IMG/VR virus record: IMGVR_UViG_2541047725_000010
Source: a virus
Lineage: Duplodnaviria > Heunggongvirae > Uroviricota > Caudoviricetes
Length of the DNA stretch: 41,240 nt
Direction: 5' to 3' (one strand)
The notes under the pieces are model-generated. The model was not told where the DNA came from. It searched no databases and worked only from the letters and a program-made list of their open reading frames with translations. Both the position numbers and the translations under genes were made by a program. Positions 31,682 through 41,240 of this stretch are shown piece by piece. How positions within the stretch are numbered: the first letter of the stretch is position 1; every line of letters begins with the position of its first letter.

Positions 31682-32154
31682 TGGTTGCCTCCTTTGCGAA
31701 GCTGCTCCGCACAATGCAGCAGGGCGTCCGTCGCTTCTTTCACCGTAACGATGTCGCCATCGTCCAGCCCGGCAACCGTCGCGTCCTTAACGAACACCGA
31801 GCAAAGGTCATTAAACGCCTGCGCCCGTACTTCAGCCAAGAAAGCGTCGGTGGCTGGCATATTTCCTGTTGCCTTCATGGCATCCAAAATAACCAGAACG
31901 CCATCTCTCCCAACCGCCTCACAGATAACCTCAGTGTTGTCGCCAACAACATCGCAGAATGCCTGAACTGCTTTACGAGCCAGCTCATTCTCCGCCGCCA
32001 GCGCATTAGCACGCACCAGTTGCACTTCCAGTTGCGTTGCCAAATCGCTGATCAGCTTTGCCACACTGCGCATATCAACGGCACCACATTCTGCTTTCAG
32101 TTCCGAAGCCATCTCATGCCCGGCGGCAACTAACCCTTTGATATTACTTTCCAT
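31678..32154 (-). CDS. Hypothetical early protein
   Basis: 158 aa, Ala-rich, acidic. Confidence 0.45.
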   Translation of the reverse strand: MESNIKGLVAAGHEMASELKAECGAVDMRSVAKLISDLATQLEVQLVRANALAAENELARKAVQAFCDVVGDNTEVICEAVGRDGVLVILDAMKATGNMPATDAFLAEVRAQAFNDLCSVFVKDATVAGLDDGDIVTVKEATDALLHCAEQLRKGGNQ

Positions 32155-32215
32155 CCTTACCCTCGCTTATCCACATAACTTATTGATTACATTGATAACT
32201 AAAAAGATCGTCGAT

Positions 32216-32560
32216 TCAGAACTCTTCGATGTTCCAGCCACCACCTGCTTTCTTTGGCTTAACCGTTACCCCGATGATTCGGAACGGATACTGATCTGCG
32301 GCGACTTTGGTTTTCACCCTGGCGTCGTCGGTCCAGAAACCTTTCACTTCGTGCAGTTCCATCTCTCCGGTGGCGAGCATCACAGCGAAATCTGGCGTAT
32401 AGAACGTGTTGTCAGCTAACCGCAGCTTGATACCCTCAAATCGATACCAGACGATTTCTCCTGCACGTTTACGCATCTCAAGGTGCTGACAATACGCAGA
32501 TTCTGTTTTGTTCATCTGGCCTGTTTTGAGTCGACCAAGAGCCTGTATCTGTTTTCTCAT
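32216..32560 (-). CDS. DUF1064-like protein (putative nuclease/resolvase-like)
   Basis: 114 aa; AGEIVWYRFEGIKLRL...YTPDFAV...HEVKG pattern recalled for DUF1064; two operator-like palindromes in its leader. Confidence 0.5.
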   Translation of the reverse strand: MRKQIQALGRLKTGQMNKTESAYCQHLEMRKRAGEIVWYRFEGIKLRLADNTFYTPDFAVMLATGEMELHEVKGFWTDDARVKTKVAADQYPFRIIGVTVKPKKAGGGWNIEEF

Positions 32561-32562
32561 GA

Positions 32563-32579
32563 TTTACCCCTGAGGTAAT
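32563..32579. promoter_or_regulatory. Operator-like palindrome TTTACC-CCTGA-GGTAAT overlapping the RBS of gene 32216-32560
   Basis: Same motif family; 3 bp from the start codon. Confidence 0.45.
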
Positions 32580-32624
32580 TAAAAACCACATAAGACACGA
32601 GATCAATAGATTTTAGAATATTTT

Positions 32625-32641
32625 ATTACCTAATAGGTAAT
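32625..32641. promoter_or_regulatory. Operator-like palindrome ATTACC-TAATA-GGTAAT
   Basis: Perfect half-sites; between the P-like gene terminator and gene 32216-32560. Confidence 0.5.
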
Positions 32642-32677
32642 TATTGAGACGTAAAAAAATGCGCTATCGCGCTGGTA

Positions 32678-33478
32678 TTACTTGATAAATCCTGCCGCCT
32701 TTCCCCGCCTGTATTCCTCCATCAGCCACTGCGCCGGTGTTATTCCCCCCAAGGTGGCGGCGTTAGGCATGCACCCGAAACTTCGCCCTGGCGGGTGGTA
32801 AACGTCTCTCCCTGTGTCCGGAGGCGTACTCATGGGTTCTGGCTTTGCCTGTATGCTGATCACCGGATCGGGTATCTGCTGTCCGGAAGCCACCTTTTTC
32901 GCCCAATCATCGAGCAGCCTACGCGCGTGTTTCTCAACCTCAATCTCGCTAAGCTGGCGCTGATACATTGCACGGCGGGTATCACATACGACCCAATACA
33001 TAACCGGATGTCGCCACGGGAATCTTTCGGGACCACCAGGATATAAACTTTTTTCCTTGCTGTACCGGTGAAACTCCGCCATCACATCGTCAATGGTGAC
33101 GCCAAGAACCATCTTGCTGTCTTTGCACCACTTGATAAATTGCCCTGGCGACGGCCAGAACGGAGATTCGCTGGCGCGGGCGTGGCGCATACCAGCAGAA
33201 ACCTGTTCACGGGTTCGGATCCCCCCTTCGGCAAACGCAGCAATCCACTGCTGTTTTGCAGCAACTTCCTGCTCTGGCGTCTTCAGGTTGGTTACCACTG
33301 CCGCCGGAAACAGTTGTTTCAGCTGTTTGAAAAGGGCATCAACAAGCCTCTCTGCTGACATGTTCACCACGTTGTCATTGTTGGTGTACTGATGCTCATA
33401 ACCTGACATGCGAGAAAGGGCTTCTCCGTCACGGTTTTGTATCGCGGTAAAAACGTTGTTCACAAGAAATCCTCCCAT
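32678..33478 (-). CDS. Replication protein P-like (helicase loader)
   Basis: 266 aa; QQWIAAFAEGGIRTREQVSAGMRHARASESPFWPSPGQFIKWCKD closely parallels lambda P as recalled. Confidence 0.75.
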   Translation of the reverse strand: MGGFLVNNVFTAIQNRDGEALSRMSGYEHQYTNNDNVVNMSAERLVDALFKQLKQLFPAAVVTNLKTPEQEVAAKQQWIAAFAEGGIRTREQVSAGMRHARASESPFWPSPGQFIKWCKDSKMVLGVTIDDVMAEFHRYSKEKSLYPGGPERFPWRHPVMYWVVCDTRRAMYQRQLSEIEVEKHARRLLDDWAKKVASGQQIPDPVISIQAKPEPMSTPPDTGRDVYHPPGRSFGCMPNAATLGGITPAQWLMEEYRRGKAAGFIK

Positions 33479-34275
33479 GCTTCAGGGCTGTTCCAGTGCG
33501 GAACGTTGTTATCAGGTAATGTTGATTGCTTCTGTCTGCTAATCTGCAGCCGCCTTGCCAGCTTCTGCTCCCACTGTGCCTGATGGTATGCCTTACCCTC
33601 AGCCATCCAGTAAATTCTGAACTCTGCAAGTTCCTGTGCCGTTGGCAGACTGTCTAGGTAGATCCCCTGCAATGAGCTTTTCCGAAGAAAATCATCTGAT
33701 GGTTGCCATTGTTCATGCATGACAAATTTGCCTAATTGCCCTGGCCCACCAGGAGGAACAAAGTTATTCATCACGGCGTTGTTTGCGCCGGGGTCATGAG
33801 GCACAGAATCCCCGGTTTTTGTCCTGCTCTCCCTCTCTTGGTTAAATGACTGGTTATATGACTGGTTCTGGATCCCGTTTTTGGGATCATTCAATATCCC
33901 GTTTTTGGGATCATTCAACATCCCGTTTTTGGGTATATTCCCGTTTTCGGTAACATTACCGTTTTCGGGTTCATTGCCCCCCTCCCGGTTGCCTTTAATG
34001 TTCCCGTTTTTGGTTATATTAAGAGAGAAAACCCGCACTCTTTTTGTCGCTCCCTTTCTCTCTCCGGTATCTGAAATAAGCCCCATTTTCATGAGCGATA
34101 TAAGCCCGGCCTGCACGGTTTTTTTATTCAGGCAAGTGTCTTTAACGAGGCGTTCTATGCTGGGGTAGCAGAGGTTATATTCATCGGCTCTGTCAGCCAT
34201 CGAGAGCAGTATGAGCTTTAATGACGAGCTACCTGGATCTGTCTCCCAGGCCCAATCTGTTGCATGTCTGCTCAT
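33460..34275 (-). CDS. Replication initiator O-like (replisome organiser) containing the origin iterons
   Basis: 271 aa; N-terminal winged-helix-like region resembles the lambda O N-terminus; central repetitive peptide encoded by DNA iterons. Confidence 0.65.
   Translation of the reverse strand: MSRHATDWAWETDPGSSSLKLILLSMADRADEYNLCYPSIERLVKDTCLNKKTVQAGLISLMKMGLISDTGERKGATKRVRVFSLNITKNGNIKGNREGGNEPENGNVTENGNIPKNGMLNDPKNGILNDPKNGIQNQSYNQSFNQERESRTKTGDSVPHDPGANNAVMNNFVPPGGPGQLGKFVMHEQWQPSDDFLRKSSLQGIYLDSLPTAQELAEFRIYWMAEGKAYHQAQWEQKLARRLQISRQKQSTLPDNNVPHWNSPEAWEDFL
33872..34017. repeat. Origin-of-replication iterons (6 copies of CCCGTTTT(T/C)GGG-like core)
   Basis: Cores at about 33874, 33898, 33922, 33940, 33958 and 34003; first two units are perfect 24-bp repeats; inside the O-like gene as in lambda ori. 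Confidence 0.65.
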
Positions 34276-34290
34276 GATTAATCTCCGCTA

Positions 34291-34491
34291 TCAGCTTGAA
34301 TGTTGTGGGGAGGAATTAATCATGATCTGCTTAATCTCTGCCCTGATACGACGGTTTGATTCCATGGTGCACTCAACACAGTGTCCGTTGTAAACCCAGC
34401 GTTCACTGTCATGTCCGTGCTTACATGTTTTTCCGGTGTAGTAGCGTTTAAGTCCGCGCTTTGCGGCATCAATACGTGTAATGATTTCCAT
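34291..34491 (-). CDS. Small Cys/His-rich protein at the cII position
   Basis: Start placed at ATG 34491 (track ORF begins with TTG at 34554); motif CKHGH...CVEC; function unknown. Confidence 0.4.
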   Translation of the reverse strand: MEIITRIDAAKRGLKRYYTGKTCKHGHDSERWVYNGHCVECTMESNRRIRAEIKQIMINSSPQHSS

Positions 34492-34570
34492 GGTAAGCCC
34501 TGTTATTAGTATTGGGATTACGGTCATTTTGTGCTGACACAAAAAAAAGATCAACCAGATTTGGTTTTTT

Positions 34571-34587
34571 ATTACCTTTGAGGTGCG
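34571..34587. promoter_or_regulatory. Degenerate operator-like site ATTACC-TTTGA-GGTGCG
   Basis: One perfect and one degenerate half-site upstream of gene 34291-34554. Confidence 0.3.
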
Positions 34588-34641
34588 AATAGATATGAAA
34601 AGACCGCCGGGTGGCGGTCTACAGAGGGTTGTGGCTGGATA

Positions 34642-34872
34642 TCATGAGTAGAAGAAGTATGCCAGTTCTGCTTTTGAGCGCAGCCATTGTCTTGTTTTAC
34701 AGGCTTTAAAAAGCCCATTCATCAATACTTTACCTGGCATTTTGCGCTTACCTGTTAAGTGAGTCTGGATATAGTGACTCGTCGTTCCGGCTTCCTGTGC
34801 GAAGGCTTCACGCTCATCCGGAGTAAGTGCAAGCCAGTGCTTTTTGAAATCGAAATGTCCGTTATCGCTCAT
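34642..34872 (-). CDS. Cro-like HTH transcriptional regulator
   Basis: 76 aa; first gene of the minus-strand early operon, divergent from the repressor-like gene; HTH-like segment. Confidence 0.55.
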   Translation of the reverse strand: MSDNGHFDFKKHWLALTPDEREAFAQEAGTTSHYIQTHLTGKRKMPGKVLMNGLFKACKTRQWLRSKAELAYFFYS

Positions 34873-34955
34873 AGCTATTGCCTGATATTTATTTCAGATA
34901 ATAAATATTCACCCATAAGGTAACAAAAATCAAGGATAGTTACCTATGGGGTGCA

Positions 34956-34972
34956 TTTACCTGTTGGGTAAT
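34956..34972. promoter_or_regulatory. Operator-like palindrome TTTACC-TGTTG-GGTAAT in the divergent immunity region
   Basis: Within the 154-bp gap between the cro-like and repressor-like genes; a second inverted pair GGTAAC...GTTACC lies at 34919-34944. Confidence 0.5.
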
Positions 34973-35026
34973 ATTGCTTTAAATTGAATCATCTACTGAT
35001 TCATATACGAGGCGATTTTCCAGAAA

Positions 35027-35611
35027 ATGAAAAGTATCCAGGACGTCCGCAGGCAAAATCTCAACGACTTGATCGACCGTGAATTCAATGGTGTTCAGAC
35101 GCGGATGGCAGAAAAACTTGGAACTCAGGCAAATCTGGTAAACCGCTGGGCTCTTGGCAAGAAGGTTATCGGCGACCAGGTTGCGCGAAAAATTGAAGCT
35201 GCCGCCAATAAACCCCGTAACTGGCTTGATATCGATCGCTCGCTTTCTCAGGAAGGTTTTCAGCCTGTCGGCCCAAGCGACATTGGTCAGCTGGCGGCTC
35301 ACAACCTGGAACGCTGGATGAGCGAAAGCCGCGACCTTTCAACACAGGGAAAACTTCACCGCGCATCCGGCGTCGCCCAGGTGACAATCAGCCGCCTGTT
35401 AAACAATGAGGTCAGCGTTTCCATTTCCACCCTGGAGAATGTTGCATCCGCATTCGGGCGTCACGGCTATGAATTACTGATTCACCCGCACGACCCTGCG
35501 ACCATCAACTATGACCGCTCGCGCTACGCATTGTTACCCGAAACCGAGAAAGCAAAGATCGAAAGTTACATTGAATTTGTCATCAACCAGAACGAAAAAA
35601 ACAAACAATAA
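35027..35611 (+). CDS. Repressor-like regulator with two HTH domains, no recognisable S24 peptidase domain
   Basis: 194 aa; two HTH-like segments (GVQTRMAEKLGTQANLVNRW and ASGVAQVTISRLLNNEVSVS); divergent from the cro-like gene. Confidence 0.6.
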   Translation: MKSIQDVRRQNLNDLIDREFNGVQTRMAEKLGTQANLVNRWALGKKVIGDQVARKIEAAANKPRNWLDIDRSLSQEGFQPVGPSDIGQLAAHNLERWMSESRDLSTQGKLHRASGVAQVTISRLLNNEVSVSISTLENVASAFGRHGYELLIHPHDPATINYDRSRYALLPETEKAKIESYIEFVINQNEKNKQ

Positions 35612-35631
35612 AATCATATTTTTCAGTAAGT

Positions 35632-35656
35632 AAGCCGCCTTCTGGCGGCTTTTTTA
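35632..35656 (+). terminator. Intrinsic terminator after the repressor-like gene
   Basis: AAGCCGCC-ttct-GGCGGCTT followed by a T-run. Confidence 0.7.
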
Positions 35657-35667
35657 TTGTCTACACA

Positions 35668-35684
35668 ATTACCTTAAGGGTAAT
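35668..35684. promoter_or_regulatory. Operator-like palindrome ATTACC-TTAAG-GGTAAT
   Basis: Perfect half-sites just downstream of the terminator. Confidence 0.5.
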
Positions 35685-35702
35685 TTTTTTAACTCATATC
35701 TA

Positions 35703-35746
35703 TTGACACCAAACCAAATACGCATAATCATTACCTCAACGGTAAC
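35703..35746 (+). promoter_or_regulatory. Candidate early promoter (TTGACA ... CATAAT) with operator ATTACC-TCAAC-GGTAAC at its start region
   Basis: TTGACA at 35703-35708, CATAAT at 35723-35728 (short spacer of about 14 bp), palindrome at 35730-35746; drives the plus-strand operon from 35765. Confidence 0.4.
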
Positions 35747-35764
35747 AGACCGAGGTAACAAGTT

Positions 35765-35917
35765 ATGCAGTGGAAAATCATCAACGGTTGGTACTGCGTT
35801 ACTGCATGCGGATTCATGAGCTGGAAGTTCCGCACCTTACAGGAAGGCATTAAGTGGGCTTTCGTCAGCAAAGAAGCTCGCGATGTGGCCAACGATAACG
35901 AGATATGGGAGGGCTGA
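35765..35917 (+). CDS. Possible small protein (50 aa)
   Basis: Below track threshold; GAGGT RBS; Trp/Cys-containing. Confidence 0.3.
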   Translation: MQWKIINGWYCVTACGFMSWKFRTLQEGIKWAFVSKEARDVANDNEIWEG

Positions 35918-35919
35918 TA

Positions 35920-36219
35920 ATGAACGTTAATCAGCAGAAAAATCTTCAAAAAATCATGCTGGCATTCGACAAGGACTACCGCCTGTCAGAACAGCTATAT
36001 GACCGACAAGTCGAACTGATTGAGAGTATCCGGCTTCATCAACTGGCCTCAACTTTTGACGTTGTAACAGGCAAAGGCGTTCGTCAGGAAGTGCTGGAGG
36101 CCGCTAAAGACAGCCCTGAGTTCGAAGAACTAATGGATGCCTACCGGCGAGAGGCAATGGCAATTATCGCCCGCTGGGATCTGGCGGATCAGCTTGATGG
36201 ACAGAAGGACGCGGCATGA
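35920..36219 (+). CDS. Hypothetical early protein
   Basis: 99 aa from ATG 35920; ATGA overlap with the exonuclease gene. Confidence 0.45.
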   Translation: MNVNQQKNLQKIMLAFDKDYRLSEQLYDRQVELIESIRLHQLASTFDVVTGKGVRQEVLEAAKDSPEFEELMDAYRREAMAIIARWDLADQLDGQKDAA

Positions 36220-37037: not shown

Positions 37038-37975
37038 GCAACGACATCGCAAACATCAACGCACCAGTAGACACAGCAATCGCTGGAACTGCTGCAACTA
37101 TTTTCAGCCCAGACGGCTTGAACCAACTGATGAAATTCGCCGAGGTAATGGCGCAAAGCCGCGTAACGGTACCGGCGCACCTCGCCGGGAAACCAGCTGA
37201 TTGCATGGCCGTGGCAATGCAGGCTGCGCAGTGGGGAATGAACCCGTTTGCCGTGGCTCAGAAAACCCATGTTGTGAACGGCACGCTAGGTTATGAAGCC
37301 CAATTAGTAAACGCAGTTATCTCAACGATGTCGCCAACAAAAGATCGCATCAACTACGAGTGGTTCGGGCCGTGGGAACGCGTGATCGGTAAGTTTGTTG
37401 AGAAAACATCCAAAAACGGCAATCCATATATCGCACCAGGCTGGACTCTAAAAGACGAAGAAGGCTGCGGTGTTCGCGTATGGGCAACCATGAAGGGCGA
37501 GGATCAACCTCGAGTGCTTGAGTTAATGCTGTCTCAAGCACAGGTAAGAAACTCCACACTTTGGGCCAGTGATCCGAAACAACAACTCGCATACCTTGCG
37601 ACAAAACGCTGGTCTCGCTTGCACTGTCCTGACGTAATCATGGGCGTCTACACCCCTGACGAATTACAGGAAACGGCACCGCGCGTTGAGCGAGACATTA
37701 CTCCGCAAACGACCACTGCTGCGGGAATGAACAGTCTGATCAACGCTAAACCAGTGAAAAAGCCTGATGAGCAAACGCGTAAAGCGGATAGCCGTGATCC
37801 AGAAGAAATGCTGATGGCCTTTACCAGCGCAGCGATGAATTACAGCACTGTCTCCGAACTGGATAAGGCTTACAAATACATTGAACAGAAACTTTCAGAT
37901 GATGACGAACTGCTGGCAAAAGCCACCGACGTTTACAGCGTTCGTCGGGAAGAATTAAACGAAACATCTATGTAA
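37034..37975 (+). CDS. Single-strand annealing protein, RecT/Redbeta family
   Basis: 313 aa from ATG 37034; contains ERDITP as in lambda Bet (from memory); paired with an exonuclease. Confidence 0.7.
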   Translation: MSNDIANINAPVDTAIAGTAATIFSPDGLNQLMKFAEVMAQSRVTVPAHLAGKPADCMAVAMQAAQWGMNPFAVAQKTHVVNGTLGYEAQLVNAVISTMSPTKDRINYEWFGPWERVIGKFVEKTSKNGNPYIAPGWTLKDEEGCGVRVWATMKGEDQPRVLELMLSQAQVRNSTLWASDPKQQLAYLATKRWSRLHCPDVIMGVYTPDELQETAPRVERDITPQTTTAAGMNSLINAKPVKKPDEQTRKADSRDPEEMLMAFTSAAMNYSTVSELDKAYKYIEQKLSDDDELLAKATDVYSVRREELNETSM

Positions 37976-38415: not shown

Positions 38416-38682
38416 ATGAACAAGGTTTCAATGCGCAGCCCTTCAAAGGTTGTTGCCGTTACTCCTGCGGCGATAGAGATCGAAAAACGCGCGATTGAAA
38501 GAGAGAAAAAAGGGCAGTTCCGCATTGCCGCCCACCTTTGGCTTCAGTGCATGGATGTTGCTTCTGGTGATGTTGAGCGTGCAAGGATCGCGGTTCGCAG
38601 GGACCAATGTATCACAAAAGGTAACGGCCTTCGCCGTGGCGACTATAGCGGCATAGGATGTTGTGGGGTGGTTTATGACTAA
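38416..38682 (+). CDS. PerC/ANR-like small transcriptional regulator (tentative)
   Basis: About 88 aa from ATG 38416; pattern KKGQFRIAAHLWLQCMDVA...ERARIAVRRDQC resembles PerC-family activators (low-confidence recollection). Confidence 0.4.
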   Translation: MNKVSMRSPSKVVAVTPAAIEIEKRAIEREKKGQFRIAAHLWLQCMDVASGDVERARIAVRRDQCITKGNGLRRGDYSGIGCCGVVYD

Positions 38683-39325
38683 GAAATACACACTAATCTA
38701 TGCAGATCCACCTTGGGTATACCGGGACAAAGCCGCAGATGGTAATCGCGGTGCCGGTTTTAAATATCCGGTTATGAGTGTGCTGGATATCTGCCGCCTT
38801 CCTGTGTGGGATTTGGCCGATGAAAACTGTCTGTTGGCCATGTGGTGGGTGCCAACACAACCACTCGAAGCACTAAAAGTTGTTGAAGCCTGGGGATTTC
38901 GTCTGATGACGATGAAGGGCTTCACGTGGATAAAATGTGGTAGTCGACAACCAGATAAACTGGTTATGGGTATGGGACACATGACTCGCGCCAATAGTGA
39001 AGATTGCCTGTTTGCAGTAAAGGGAAAACTACCTCCACGCATTAATGCAGGGATCGTTCAGGCATTTACCGCACCGCGGCTTGAGCATTCAAGAAAACCA
39101 GATGTCGTTCGTGAAAAACTTGTGCAATTGTTAGGCGATGTTTCTCGCATTGAACTGTTCGCCCGCCAGACGTCTCATGGCTTCGATGTTTGGGGTAATC
39201 AGTGCGAAGACCCGGTAGTGCAACTACACCCTGGATACGCGTTGGATATTGGCGGATTAACAAATGCATTCAGCAATGCTCCGGTGTCACCAATAGACAA
39301 CCAGGGGCGGGAGCGTGCAGCATGA
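38675..39325 (+). CDS. DNA N6-adenine methyltransferase (MT-A70/Dam-like)
   Basis: 216 aa; catalytic DPPW motif in [10 protein letters not shown]. Confidence 0.8.
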
Positions 39326-39981
39326 ACCTATATCAACGCATCAATGGTGCTGACTGGTGCAATATCTTCGTCGTCGGCGATCTGCATGGGTGCTACACGC
39401 TGCTGATGAACGAACTCGACAAAGTTTCATTCGACCCGGCGCGCGATTTACTTATTTCCGTTGGTGACCTTGTTGACCGCGGCGCTGAAAACGTCGAATG
39501 CCTGGATTTGATTACTATGCCGTGGTTCCGAGCTGTTCGTGGCAACCATGAGCAGATGATGCTGGATGCACTGGTCAACGGCGGAAGTTTCGGACATTGG
39601 ATGTCAAACGGCGGTGGATGGTGGCACCAACTTGATTCTGAGCAGGATGTGCAACTCAAATACCTTCTGCCAAAGATTACCAACCTCCCGATGATTATCG
39701 AACTGGTTACCGGCAATAAGAAGGTCGTCATCTGTCACGCAGACTACCCGCACAACGAATACGCATTCGATAAGCCAGTACCAGAAGAAATGGTGATATG
39801 GAATCGTGAGCGGGTTAGCGACGCGCAGGACGGTATTGTCTCGGAGATAACCGGTGCCGATTTGTTCATCTTCGGTCATACGCCAGCACATCACCCACTG
39901 GTGTATGCAAACCAGATGTACATCGACACCGGCGCAGTGTTCTGCGGAAATCTGACGCTTACCAAAGTCCAGGAAGGATAG
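39322..39981 (+). CDS. Serine/threonine protein phosphatase, lambda PPase-like
   Basis: 219 aa from ATG 39322; [29 protein letters not shown] and FGHTP motifs. Confidence 0.85.
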
Positions 39982-39983
39982 AA

Positions 39984-41240
39984 TTATTTATTACTGTCTT
40001 CCATCCACCTCTCAAACTTCGACGGGGAGAACGGAATCAGATCCGTATGCTCCCCGTTAATCCAGGAATCAATCATATCGGCCCACTGCTGCAACATCCA
40101 GGCGCGCTGTCTGGCGTATTCCGCTTTGTTATATACGGCGCGCACACCTTTCTGCTCATGTGCCAGCGCCTTTTCAATCCAGTCTGAAGGATAACCAGCC
40201 TCATGCAACAACGTACTGGCTGTACGGCGCATATCGTGTACGGTGAAGCCCTGAATATGCTCACCATCTTCATTTATTATTTTCACCGTTCTGTCGATCA
40301 GAGAGTTCAGCGCGGCATTAGATAATGGCTTCCGGAAATTGTAACGACCAGGAACCAGATATTCACTTCCACCAGCGCACATCTGCAACCCAACCAATAT
40401 ATCCTGTGCCTGTTTAGGCAGGTAAATAACGTGCGCCCGGCTTCCCTTCATGCGGTCTGAAGGAATTGTCCATGTCCATTTTTTAAAATCTATTTCATCC
40501 CACGTTGCATTGGTGAATTCGCCTTTACGAACCATAGTGATAAGCACCAGCTTTAAAGCCATTTTCATAGTGCCCATAGCACCAATGGCATCCAGCGTGC
40601 GGAAGAACAGGCCAATTTCTTCTGGTGTCAGTGTTCGCTCTCGTGGTTTAAATATGGCGATAGACGAAGGTTTAATGTCAGCCGCAGGATTAAACAAACC
40701 ATGACCACGGTCATTGGCGTGACGGTATACGCTGCTGATGATCTCCCTGGCCTGTACTGCTGTTGCCCGACCACCGCGTTCGACAATCCGGTCACACAAA
40801 TCACGAACCATCGATGTGGTAATTTCAGCCATCATTTTGTTGCCAAGAACCGGAAGTATGTCACGGTCGATCACCGCCTGCTTCATTGCGCGGGTACTGT
40901 CAGCCAGGATGACGTGTTTCATATAACTGTCGGTATGTACCGCAAACGTCTCGGCACCACGAATCTTTTTGATACCGTCACGTTTAGCCGCAGCCGGTGA
41001 CTGGCCTGCTTTAAGCAGCTTCTTTGCAGCAATCAGTTCTTCTCGCGCTTCTGCCAGGCTGATACCGTCACGCCCATACTGCCCGATTACCAGTGTTTCG
41101 CGGCGACCGTTGATACGGTAGTCATAGCGAAACGAGACCGTGCCTGACGTAAGCACAGCTACATACAGCCCGTCACGGTCGGAGACCTTGTACAGTTTGT
41201 CCTGCGGCTTGAGGTTTTTTAATTTTGTATCGGTAAGCAC
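39984..41240 (-). CDS. int: Tyrosine site-specific integrase (P4/IntS-like)
   Basis: 418 aa; N-terminal arm-binding-like region and C-terminal HxxR...Y catalytic region; GTG start sits exactly at the window edge, so the true 5' end and att site are not visible. Confidence 0.85.
   Translation of the reverse strand: MLTDTKLKNLKPQDKLYKVSDRDGLYVAVLTSGTVSFRYDYRINGRRETLVIGQYGRDGISLAEAREELIAAKKLLKAGQSPAAAKRDGIKKIRGAETFAVHTDSYMKHVILADSTRAMKQAVIDRDILPVLGNKMMAEITTSMVRDLCDRIVERGGRATAVQAREIISSVYRHANDRGHGLFNPAADIKPSSIAIFKPRERTLTPEEIGLFFRTLDAIGAMGTMKMALKLVLITMVRKGEFTNATWDEIDFKKWTWTIPSDRMKGSRAHVIYLPKQAQDILVGLQMCAGGSEYLVPGRYNFRKPLSNAALNSLIDRTVKIINEDGEHIQGFTVHDMRRTASTLLHEAGYPSDWIEKALAHEQKGVRAVYNKAEYARQRAWMLQQWADMIDSWINGEHTDLIPFSPSKFERWMEDSNK

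Follow-up and report, generated by a model that had tools for sequence, protein, structure and literature searches.

The stretch of DNA analysed here, referred to as the window, comprises 41,240 nucleotides and belongs to a phage that is 97-99% identical to the temperate phage phiV10 (Uetakevirus). The genes around its replication initiator occur in the order repressor, divergent cro-like gene, small ORF, initiator and P-family loader, a layout that matches lambda. The initiator and loader genes and the coding regions of the initiator domains are located as follows:

33460..34275, minus strand: initiator gene, 271 aa, with a winged-helix (wHTH) N-domain, a repeat-encoded linker and a DnaT-like C-domain
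34021..34275, minus strand: coding region of the N-terminal wHTH (aa 1-85), the presumed iteron-binding domain
33520..33726, minus strand: coding region of the DnaT-like C-domain (aa 184-252, Pfam PF17948)
32678..33478, minus strand: helicase-loader gene of the lambda P family (Pfam Phage_lambda_P, 1.5e-56; PHROG 109 "P-like helicase loader")

In the phiV10 annotation the loader gene starts with the GTG at 33463, overlapping the stop codon of the initiator gene, and the encoded protein is 29% identical to lambda P. The initiator gene shares 97-99% DNA identity with p43 of phiV10 and relatives.

Domain structure of the initiator

The initiator matched the Pfam families HTH_36 (aa 18-67, 1.8e-10) and DnaT DNA-binding domain (aa 184-252, 1.1e-15) and was assigned to PHROG 1032, "replication initiation protein" (3.3e-108). 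An AlphaFold2 model of the N-domain (pLDDT 91.5) has the topology H-H-H-H-beta-beta, and its best PDB folds are dimeric wHTH DNA binders of the MarR/Fur/ArsR type (TM 0.55-0.60). The domain is found at the N terminus of 3732 cluster representatives (50% identity clusters, E<=1e-3), which span several classes of Pseudomonadota plus Desulfovibrio.

Residues 180-265 match residues 85-170 of E. coli DnaT (E 7e-21), and the corresponding PDB entries are the DnaT C-terminal chains 4ou6, 6aep and 9zbt (E 1e-19 to 1e-21). This domain is presumed to be a partner of the P-type loader and/or a binder of single-stranded DNA (ssDNA). The N-terminal two thirds of the initiator are unrelated to DnaT. An identification as a primosomal DnaT equivalog was ruled out, since the protein scores 85 bits against NCBIfam PRK02854/NF002770, for which the equivalog cut-off is 201 bits, and only residues 181-264 align. 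The database names "primosomal protein" and "DnaT" therefore cover one domain only and mask the initiator role.

An earlier note on this DNA, likewise made from the sequence, had called the gene O-like. This holds for its O-type position and its P-family neighbour, but not for homology to lambda O: the initiator had no match to Pfam PF04492 (Phage_rep_O) at E<=0.01, an hhalign comparison of the N-domain profile with lambda O residues 1-115 gave a probability of 3.2% (E 0.014), and the "O-like" families of PHROG matched weakly (1.9e-18 to 3.7e-07, against 3e-108 for phrog_1032). The P-interacting C-domain of the lambda O type, present in phage GF-2, is absent and the DnaT DNA-binding domain stands in its place. 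The initiator thus appears to be a functional analogue of lambda O and not a demonstrable homologue. Homology of the N-domain to lambda O cannot be demonstrated, so the analogy with lambda is functional and not phylogenetic.

The iteron array and the adjoining elements

The core CCGTTTTYGG has seven exact matches in the window, of which six are clustered (plus-strand starts 33875, 33899, 33923, 33941, 33959 and 34004, with the cores at about 33874-34014), where 0.20 were expected from shuffled sequences. All six lie within the minus-strand ORF 33460-34275, as the earlier note had proposed. A repeat search returned them as one family with start-to-start spacings of 24, 24, 18, 18 and 45 bp, and TRF reported a 24-bp array of 2.6 copies (97% matches) and an 18-bp array of 3.1 copies. 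The first two units, previously described as perfect 24-mers, turned out to be identical at 23 of 24 positions, with a perfect shared stretch of 23 nt. The array and the elements beside it consist of:

33872..33887: iteron 1, ATCCCGTTTTTGGGAT, arms ATCCC/GGGAT and A5/T5 centre, nearest to the 12-mers
33896..33911: iteron 2, ATCCCGTTTTTGGGAT
33920..33935: iteron 3, ATCCCGTTTTTGGGTA
33938..33953: iteron 4, TTCCCGTTTTCGGTAA, 18-bp spacing
33956..33971: iteron 5, TTACCGTTTTCGGGTT, 18-bp spacing
34001..34016: iteron 6 (distal), TTCCCGTTTTTGGTTA, 45-bp gap to iteron 5
33833..33868, minus (coding) strand: tandem 12-mers GAACCAGTCATA, TAACCAGTCATT and TAACCAAGAGAG, consensus GAACCAGTCAWW
33807..33842, minus (coding) strand: polypurine tract CAAGAGAGGGAGAGCAGGACAAAAA, ending in a degenerate half-iteron AAAAACCGGGGATT

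The array spans codons 87-135 of the 271-codon gene, between HTH_36 and the DnaT domain. Its copies share one reading frame and are translated as ...ITKNGNIKGNREGGNEPENGNVTENGNIPKNGMLNDPKNGILNDPKNGIQ..., each iteron encoding a unit xPKNGx, so that the co-translation into an Asn/Gly/Pro/Lys peptide described earlier was borne out. A plus-strand ORF of 95 aa (33881-34168) was discarded as an antisense by-product of the repeat. Polymorphism within the array is highest in the 45-bp gap between iterons 5 and 6, where a decayed iteron copy may be present. Motif and repeat scans revealed no second cluster of iteron type elsewhere in the window.

The 12-mers begin two bases past iteron 1, on the downstream side of the array in the coding direction, and form a second conserved DNA element, which lies outside the interval covered by the earlier note. 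TRF detected them as a 12-bp period of 2.4 copies, the sole such tandem in the window; phiV10 has one additional 12-mer unit. They are a candidate unwinding or ssDNA-contact element. With about 36% GC they are not strongly AT-rich, and composition and nearest-neighbour stability gave only a weak minimum beside the iterons and no AT-rich block of lambda grade: the least stable 30 bp (33834-33863) reach z=1.66, whereas the AT-rich block of lambda reaches z=3.5 and is the top site in the same scan. The polypurine tract, whose degenerate half-iteron reads AATCCCCGGTTTTTG on the plus strand (33807-33821), may be likened to the purine-rich AT block of lambda and to SPN1S. A search for DnaA boxes (TTWTNCACA) was negative up to 1.2 kb from the array, the closest match being at 32167.

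Conservation of the repeats in homologous initiators

Searches with the full-length initiator protein returned near-identical E. coli alleles only, and those with the 88-aa N-domain mostly truncated or frameshifted fragments. The comparison was based on 29 full-length distant homologues of the N-domain with 33-87% identity, from Escherichia, Edwardsiella, Vibrio, Acinetobacter, Burkholderia, Pseudoalteromonas, Proteus, Desulfovibrio, Sphingobium and other genera. All 29 carry related dyad repeats directly after the N-domain, in 3-10 tandem copies each; shuffled controls usually contained one or two copies, and four copies in 1 of 84 cases. The orientation is constant across the homologues. Spacing is 17-18 bp among the distal iterons and 22-24 bp among the proximal ones, where a TTGAAT spacer is conserved; the tandem 12/13-mers GAACCAGTCAWW come next. 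In 22 of the 29 homologues, two to five of these GAAYCnnnCA units follow the last iteron, and their frames differ; Bcep176 is a 23rd in which the anchor is present and the repeat is variant. Third-codon-position identity amounts to 0.67 in the 12-mers compared with 0.38 in the N-domain.

Representatives with 33-57% identity in the same N-domain are GF-2 (Edwardsiella), H20 (Vibrio), AP22 and Ab105-2phi (both Acinetobacter), Bcep176 (Burkholderia) and the PPompW prophage. The array occupies the same position in all of them, with the core CC(A/G)AAA(A/T)(C/T)GG and with 12/13-mers following (in Bcep176 the variant repeat). They differ in their arms (ATCCC, GTACC, GTCCC, ACCC, CCCCC), copy number and frames as well as in their C-domains and helicase or loader partners.

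The six copies of the window share one frame, so that the window alone cannot separate selection at the DNA level from selection at the peptide level. Among the homologues, 20 of 29 have copies in two or three reading frames. In GF-2, for example, ACC CAA AAA CGG GAT is read as TQKRD and GAT CCC AAA ATT GGG as DPKIG. Within 120 representative proteins the PKNG, TQKR and PKTE frame translations number 326, 71 and 32 in residues 81-210 and 0, 3 and 0 outside them, and at least two repeat frames are used by 67 of them. The arms covary across the homologues in such a way that the dyad is kept (ATC..GAT, GTA..TAC, GTC..GAC, CCC..GGG), with ATCCCAAAATTGGGAT in GF-2 and GTACCGAAATTGGTAC in Ab105-2phi. 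Complementary bases occupy flank position 2 in 56 and flank position 3 in 49 of the 107 copies, compared with 37.6 and 28.3 in shuffles, and none of 2000 shuffles reached these values. Watson-Crick pairs are enriched in the arms and G:T-type pairs are depleted (8 observed, 18 expected), which is more in keeping with a dimer binding to duplex DNA than with an RNA hairpin. What is conserved in the homologues' repeats is thus the DNA and not the peptide.

The repeats follow the N-domain also where the C-domain is exchanged. They are kept in GF-2, in which a lambda-O-like C-domain occurs together with P, and in AP22 and Ab105-2phi, in which DnaB-like helicases follow. SPN1S, Tyrion and TL-2011b, in contrast, share the DnaT-like C-domain alone and are without the repeats. 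Inheritance of the repeats is thus linked to the N-domain rather than to the C-domain.

Copy-number polymorphism was drawn from near-identical relatives in viral contigs. Natural alleles have 4-9 iterons, and changes always comprise whole 18- or 24-bp units. In 45 aligned alleles (one misaligned allele of 816 nt had been removed), the proximal three iterons and the 12-mers were the least polymorphic part of the gene: 1 of 33 third positions was variable, against 17 of 85 in the N-domain and 14 of 91 in the C-domain. Concerted evolution between the proximal repeats could account for part of this low variability.

The array as a probable replication origin

Taken together, the array at 33872-34016 very probably forms the iterons of the replication origin in a temperate, phiV10-like E. 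coli phage, situated inside the gene of its own initiator. The comparison with the lambda ori inside O drawn in the earlier note is supported by the dyads in the middle of the gene, the adjacent P-family gene, the repeats in all 29 homologues and their linkage to the N-domain. This arrangement is already known from lambda, and the initiator found here is from another protein family. Two circular records, pHL15EC-2 (41 kb) and pZ1323HEC0067-2 (8.5 kb, with a PPompW-type allele), have the module as their sole recognisable replication genes. The literature searched yielded no binding or replication experiment with an HTH_36-type initiator and no description of the origin of such an initiator.

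The following course of initiation would be consistent with these features. Each 16-bp dyad (coding strand ATCCC-A5C-GGGAT) would serve as the binding site for dimers of the N-terminal winged helix, presumably the domain that recognises the repeats, and the three perfect proximal sites at 24-bp spacing together with the distal sites at 18-bp spacing would, by analogy with lambda, build an O-some-like complex. In the weakest step of this model, the nucleoprotein complex would destabilise the adjoining 12-mers and the polypurine tract (33807-33868). Judging from the domain families and the gene order, the DnaT-like C-domain would recruit the P-type loader with the host DnaB. Since the sites fall within the interdomain linker, translation turns them into a spacer rich in Asn/Gly/Pro/Lys, which tolerates the gain or loss of whole 18- or 24-bp units.

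In lambda, iterons and an AT-rich tract lie in the middle of O, and in vitro only the iterons beside the AT-rich tract are needed (PMC7466680); the O protein tolerates in-frame deletions of ori (PMC6022878). Like the array described here, ori-lambda and the six-iteron origins of the Stx phages 933W and P27 consist of initiator-binding dyad repeats located mid-gene, where they separate the DNA-binding N-domain from the loader-recruiting C-domain of the initiator, with arms ATCCC/GGGA(T), an A-rich centre, a spacing of 18-24 bp, 4-6 copies and a translated linker. They also share the P-family loader directly downstream and the operon type cro, cII-like gene, O and P. The lambda iteron ATCCCTCAAAACGAGGGA, defined by experiment as a binding site of O, resembles the coding-strand iteron ATCCCAAAAACGGGAT in having identical arms and an A-rich centre, and the frame of the window's iterons is also that in which lambda iteron 1 is translated. 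Differences concern the domains (HTH_36 and DnaT-like in the present initiator), the length of the iteron (18-19 bp in lambda, 16 bp here, with a centre 3 bp shorter and half-sites 11 bp apart instead of about 14 bp) and the frames (three in lambda, one here). At the position of lambda's AT-rich block, 12-mers and a G-containing polypurine tract are found (z 1.66 versus 3.5).

Iteron plasmids (RK2 TrfA, F RepE, R6K pi, pPS10 RepA) likewise combine a winged-helix initiator with arrays spaced at about 17-24 bp. Plasmid iterons are usually asymmetric direct repeats which are bound by monomers and lie outside the rep gene, and the DNA unwinding elements (DUEs) of plasmids are AT-rich and in most cases have DnaA boxes beside them. 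The present array differs in having dyads inside the gene and 12-mers that are not AT-rich, and there is no DnaA box nearby, so it departs from the iteron-plasmid type of origin. Short tandem repeats beside the iterons are nevertheless a common element: a plasmid Rep protein is reported to contact such repeats, the 13-mers of the DUE, as ssDNA (PMC4081077). We regard it as plausible rather than probable that HTH_36-type phage initiators share a distinct, undescribed origin grammar, in which the two to four tandem 12/13-mers would be recognised by the initiator in a sequence-specific manner, for unwinding or for contact with ssDNA, and would not be a passive AT-rich melt site. Read in this way, the 12/13-mers would be comparable to DnaA-trios or to the Rep-bound strand of a plasmid DUE.

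Methylation was considered as an additional level of control. The arms GATCCC...GGGATC had been described as carrying GATC, which is true of both arms in the first copy (GATCCCGTTTTTGGGATC) but not of the other copies; in total the array has three GATC sites, at 33871, 33885 and 33909. The phage encodes an N6-adenine methyltransferase:

38663-39325, plus strand: methyltransferase gene, Pfam MT-A70 with DPPW motif

The proposed link to a Dam-like enzyme is unsupported, as the protein belongs to the MT-A70 family and not to the Dam (D12) family and had no NCBIfam match that would point to a GATC specificity, and GATC is not conserved in the homologues' repeats. That adenine methylation of the arms, by the phage enzyme or by host Dam with SeqA, modulates origin firing is therefore unlikely. 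The three sites fall within 39 bp, a density of three per 50 bp that is reached at only one other place in the window, and GATCCC arms also occur in GF-2, L093 and L097. However, the density arises because one unit is repeated, the GATC total of the window is as expected (154 versus 160), and most homologues, including those from Dam-positive Vibrio, have iterons without GATC, which is consequently not part of the conserved site.

Less probable still is binding of the initiator to the repeats solely for control (autoregulation, a transcription roadblock, or copy number and handcuffing as in plasmid iterons) with replication starting elsewhere. The sites do lie within a transcribed gene, dyads for winged-helix dimers are typical operators, the fold matches being to MarR/Fur/ArsR repressors, and no strongly AT-rich unwinding element adjoins them. 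Yet the conserved grammar, with its two spacing classes (17-18 bp distal, 22-24 bp proximal), the 12/13-mers and the fixed orientation, is hard to explain as an operator, the same layout is an origin in lambda, and the window contains no other such cluster. Control and origin functions of the repeats are not mutually exclusive.

Very improbable is a slippage-prone, low-complexity Asn/Gly/Pro/Lys linker devoid of any DNA function. Although the in-frame xPKNGx units of the window and the variable copy number of the alleles would be expected of a tolerant linker, this explanation predicts none of the comparative features and is, as far as sequences can tell, already contradicted by them: the homologues translate the motif in two or three frames, with unrelated peptides as the result, covariation keeps Watson-Crick dyads, third codon positions are kept with CCC and GGG throughout, and the spacing classes are conserved across phyla.

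Least credible are hairpins in mRNA or ssDNA (translational pausing, mRNA stability, antisense termination), for the folding of the mRNA 33830-34030 beyond shuffles (-57 kcal/mol, z=-3.85) follows automatically from any dyad repeat, the stems measure only 5-6 bp around a "loop" that is a conserved A-tract, the depletion of G:U-type pairs (8 versus 18) speaks against an RNA stem, the plus-strand DNA fold is not significant (z=-1.1), and an Rfam scan of 32000-36000 gave chance-level matches only and no family. A pattern scan called two weak terminator-like sites (33882-33901 and 33906-33925) in the antisense strand, which might be taken to favour hairpins; they lie inside iterons and were dismissed as by-products of dyads followed by T-runs.

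With the origin as the preferred reading, neither the array nor the homologues nor the 12/13-mers overturn the current understanding. The conserved 12/13-mers suggest opening at a specific element that is not AT-rich and, if this is true, would extend the lambda paradigm to a modest degree. The reading-frame argument separates DNA-level from peptide-level selection in a sequence of dual use. Phages of the phiV10/Uetakevirus type serve as reporter and typing phages for O157. The analysis supplies a concrete, testable origin both for these phages and for a large number of prophage initiators, whose database labels go no further than "primosomal protein", "DnaT-like" or "HTH domain protein".

Initiator gene and repeat array

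The core CCGTTTTYGG occurs six times within 33872-34017 (+ strand), at 33875, 33899, 33923, 33941, 33959 and 34004, against 0.20 matches expected on average from dinucleotide-preserving shuffles of the window, which bears out the cluster of six copies described in the earlier note. Outside the array there is a single further match in 41 kb, at 37410. The six copies form one repeat family with a start-to-start spacing of 24, 24, 18, 18 and 45 bp, in which TRF detected one 24-bp and one 18-bp array, and each unit is a 16-bp dyad. The first two units, previously called perfect 24-mers, are identical at 23 of 24 positions; GATC, said to lie in the dyad arms, is present three times in the array and occupies both arms only in the first dyad. 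All six units share one reading frame and are translated as ...ITKNGN...EPENGNVTENGNIPKNGMLNDPKNGILNDPKNGIQ.

Features of the replication region and the methyltransferase gene
32678-33478, minus: lambda-P-family loader gene, next after the initiator on its strand
33460-34275, minus: initiator ORF, 271 aa, containing the array
33807-33842: polypurine tract and degenerate half-iteron, beyond the 12-mers
33833-33868, minus: tandem 12-mers GAACCAGTCATA, TAACCAGTCATT and TAACCAAGAGAG, outside the interval of the earlier note
Iterons 1-3 (lowest coordinates; proximal, nearest the 12-mers): ATCCCGTTTTTGGGAT/TA
Iterons 4-6 (distal): degenerate, TTCCCGTTTTCGGTAA, TTACCGTTTTCGGGTT and TTCCCGTTTTTGGTTA
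34620-34601, minus: predicted terminator-like site
34926-34898, minus: predicted sigma-70-like promoter
38663-39325, plus: MT-A70-family N6-adenine methyltransferase with DPPW motif

The initiator contains the Pfam domains HTH_36 (aa 18-67) and DnaT DNA-binding domain (aa 184-252), no Phage_rep_O domain was found by Pfam, and the protein belongs to PHROG 1032 ‘replication initiation protein’. Solved structures of the DnaT C-terminal domain match its C-terminus (E about 1e-20), and the protein scores far under the DnaT equivalog cut-off. The AlphaFold2 model of the N-domain (aa 1-85) is a confident winged helix (pLDDT 91.5), whose best PDB matches are dimeric DNA binders of the MarR/Fur/ArsR type with only E about 4e-3 and TM 0.55-0.60. 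Upstream, the minus strand carries a small ORF plus a cro-like gene; the gene for a two-HTH repressor runs in the divergent direction. With Escherichia phage phiV10 and relatives (Uetakevirus) the region shares 97-99% identity; annotations there call the initiator gene ‘primosomal protein’ or ‘replication initiation protein’.

There is no DnaA box near the array. The window contains two DnaA-box matches, fewer than the 3.9 expected by chance; a perfect consensus (TTATCCACA) is located at 32167-32175, about 1.7 kb from the iterons, in a short gap just past a DUF1064 gene (32216-32560).

The methyltransferase had been taken for a Dam-like enzyme; by Pfam it is MT-A70 and not of the Dam (D12) family, NCBIfam gave no assignment, and the equivalent phiV10 gene is annotated only as ‘DNA methyltransferase’. 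GATC lies outside the conserved core in homologues and is as frequent across the window as expected, and a role of methylation at the array is possible but unsupported. A calcineurin-like phosphoesterase ORF (39202-39981, +), in place of which phiV10 has a DUF1382 gene, overlaps the end of the methyltransferase gene and adjoins the integrase gene (39984-41240).

Selection on DNA or on peptide

Because all copies share one frame, selection on DNA is not separable from selection on the peptide within the window. We therefore compared 29 homologues: the window gene, six phages of the annotated collection (PPompW, Edwardsiella GF-2, Vibrio H20, Acinetobacter AP22, Ab105-2phi and Burkholderia Bcep176) and 22 usable full-length loci from one-genome-per-species contigs, selected as N-domain homologues. 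A de novo 12-mer repeat finder detected 3-10 tandem copies directly 3' of the N-domain in all 29 genes and at most two in the part encoding the N-domain; shuffled controls gave one or two copies as a rule, three in 15/84 and four in 1/84. A common core, CC(A/G)AAA(A/T)(C/T)GG, was found in 28 homologues (127 copies), and 20 of the 29 have copies in two or three reading frames, as in GF-2, where the motif is translated once as TQKRD and three times as DPKIG. Lambda’s four iterons likewise occupy three frames. Among 120 representative proteins of the initiator family, the tetrapeptides that the core would encode in each of its three frames were counted 326, 71 and 32 times at residues 81-210 and 0, 3 and 0 times elsewhere; two or more frames are in use in 67 of the proteins. 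Such multi-frame use is what a DNA site, and not a peptide linker, would predict.

Many database ‘proteins’ of the family are truncated or frameshifted at the array, among them the public protein clusters P0005, P0009, P0025 and P0031 (within or just before it), and the array seems to be a hotspot of frameshifts, assembly errors or pseudogenisation.

Between lineages, the bases flanking the core vary yet remain complementary (ATC..GAT, GTA..TAC, GTC..GAC, CCC..GGG). Of 107 distinct copies, 56 show complementarity at flank position 2 and 49 at position 3; shuffling of the right flanks gives 37.6 and 28.3, and the observed value was reached in 0/2000 shuffles. These counts are indicative only, since relatedness of the copies inflates them. 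As Watson-Crick pairs are enriched (105 vs 66) and G:T-type pairs depleted (8 vs 18), the flanks favour a duplex site for a symmetric dimer over an RNA hairpin. Adjacent iterons are able to pair mutually at 33882-33925 (+; TGGGATCATTCAATATCCCG followed by TTTTT), which accounts for two weak terminator-like calls there, antisense to the initiator gene; most likely these calls are a side effect of the dyad symmetry.

The repeats are inherited together with the N-domain. They are kept in homologues of this domain whose C-domains and partners are quite different: GF-2 combines them with a lambda-O-type C-domain plus P, and in AP22 and Ab105-2phi DnaB-type helicases lie next. SPN1S, Tyrion and TL-2011b (Uetakevirus-type) keep the DnaT-like C-domain with another N-domain, and the iteron repeats are absent in all three. 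Dyads of another kind and a polypurine run occupy the equivalent mid-gene position in SPN1S, which suggests a different origin at the same place in the gene of SPN1S and TL-2011b. The dyads of SPN1S (L010, gene nt about 335-420) and TL-2011b (L012) read GTCCGCAAAGCGTCCGC / GCGGACAAAAAGCGGAC, followed by the polypurine run AGAGAAGAGAAGAGAAGAGAAG and a shared AAAACCCCACACATAG.

The exact core is present in 4-9 copies (mode 6) in 78 near-identical genes taken from viral contigs, whose lengths always differ by whole 18- or 24-bp units; one 24-bp unit is missing from the BP9 record, and phiV10 carries an additional 12-bp unit. This natural variation fits the finding that O proteins retain complementing activity when ori is deleted in frame (PMC6022878). 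In 45 aligned alleles, polymorphism is lowest across the three proximal iterons and the 12-mers (gene nt 343-441), where 1/33 third positions vary; the corresponding values are 17/85 for the N-domain, 14/91 for the C-domain and 8/29 for the distal array. Concerted evolution may be part of the reason for the low proximal value.

The circular E. coli ‘plasmid’ pZ1323HEC0067-2 (L122, NZ_CP148379.1; 8,461 bp), for which plasmid replicon typing gave none, encodes a repressor, cro-like, ydaT, O-like (DnaT-type, PPompW allele), truncated P, hokD and rem, and resembles a natural lambda-dv. The circular ‘plasmid’ pHL15EC-2 (L123, NZ_CP079771.1; 41,027 bp) is a whole phiV10-like phage. ‘Escherichia phage BP9’ (L003, PP488543.1), a 138-kb Vequintavirus record, ends in a phiV10-like repressor/cro/O-like/P module (133-138 kb; 96% identical), probably an assembly chimera or contamination.

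Comparison with lambda and the 12/13-mer element

The lambda replication origin consists of iterons and an AT-rich tract in the middle of O; lambda O bends the iterons and binds AT-rich single-stranded DNA, and in vitro only the iterons adjoining the AT-rich tract are needed (PMC7466680, summary of the experimental model). Compared with the annotated lambda iterons (ATCCCTCAAAACGAGGGA and variants, coding strand), the window unit ATCCCAAAAACGGGAT has the same arms, an A-rich centre shorter by 3 bp and the frame of lambda iteron 1. The main difference is that the window is without a strongly AT-rich block: in a stability scan the lambda block reached z=3.5 and 33834-33863 of the window only z=1.66.

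At this position the window carries the tandem 12-mers, which follow the last iteron in coding direction across a 2-bp gap. In homologues, 12/13-mers stand directly after the last iteron and are conserved at synonymous positions. The anchor CAGAAC... follows it in 23 of the 29, and 22 of these contain GAAYCnnnCAww chains of 2-5 tandem copies; spacing is 12 or 13 bp, so that the reading frame differs between successive copies (QNQS, then EPVI). The 23rd, Bcep176, has four copies of a variant repeat (AGAACAGTAG) missed by the chaining pattern. In Bcep176, L111 and L113 even the first copy stands in another frame. Third-position identity of the first unit is 0.67 vs 0.38 in the N-domain (homologue pairs with at most 75% N-domain identity). 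The consensus GAACCAGTCAWW is shared by the window and loci L005, L006, L008, L009 and L093-L115, from many genera; no such tandem was found elsewhere in the window, in lambda or in relatives with another N-domain. The 12/13-mers are a candidate sequence-specific unwinding or ssDNA-contact element. The half-iteron at 33807-33821 is degenerate (AATCCCCGGTTTTTG; AAAAAACGGGGAT in phiV10 and BP9) and lies on the far side, so that 12-mers and polypurine tract are bracketed by iteron-like sequence. Iteron spacing is also conserved, with 17-18 bp between distal and 22-24 bp between proximal iterons, the latter separated by a TTGAAT spacer.

The proposal that the array represents origin iterons lying inside the gene of their initiator is well supported by comparative evidence; initiator binding, unwinding and replicator activity are inferred. 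The likeness to lambda’s ori inside O holds for a functionally lambdoid ori-in-initiator arrangement and not for the initiator family, which combines an HTH_36 winged helix with a DnaT-like domain. A literature search yielded no published description of, or experiment on, this origin type. What remains of most interest is the conserved 12/13-mer element, which is not AT-rich, together with the conserved spacing grammar.
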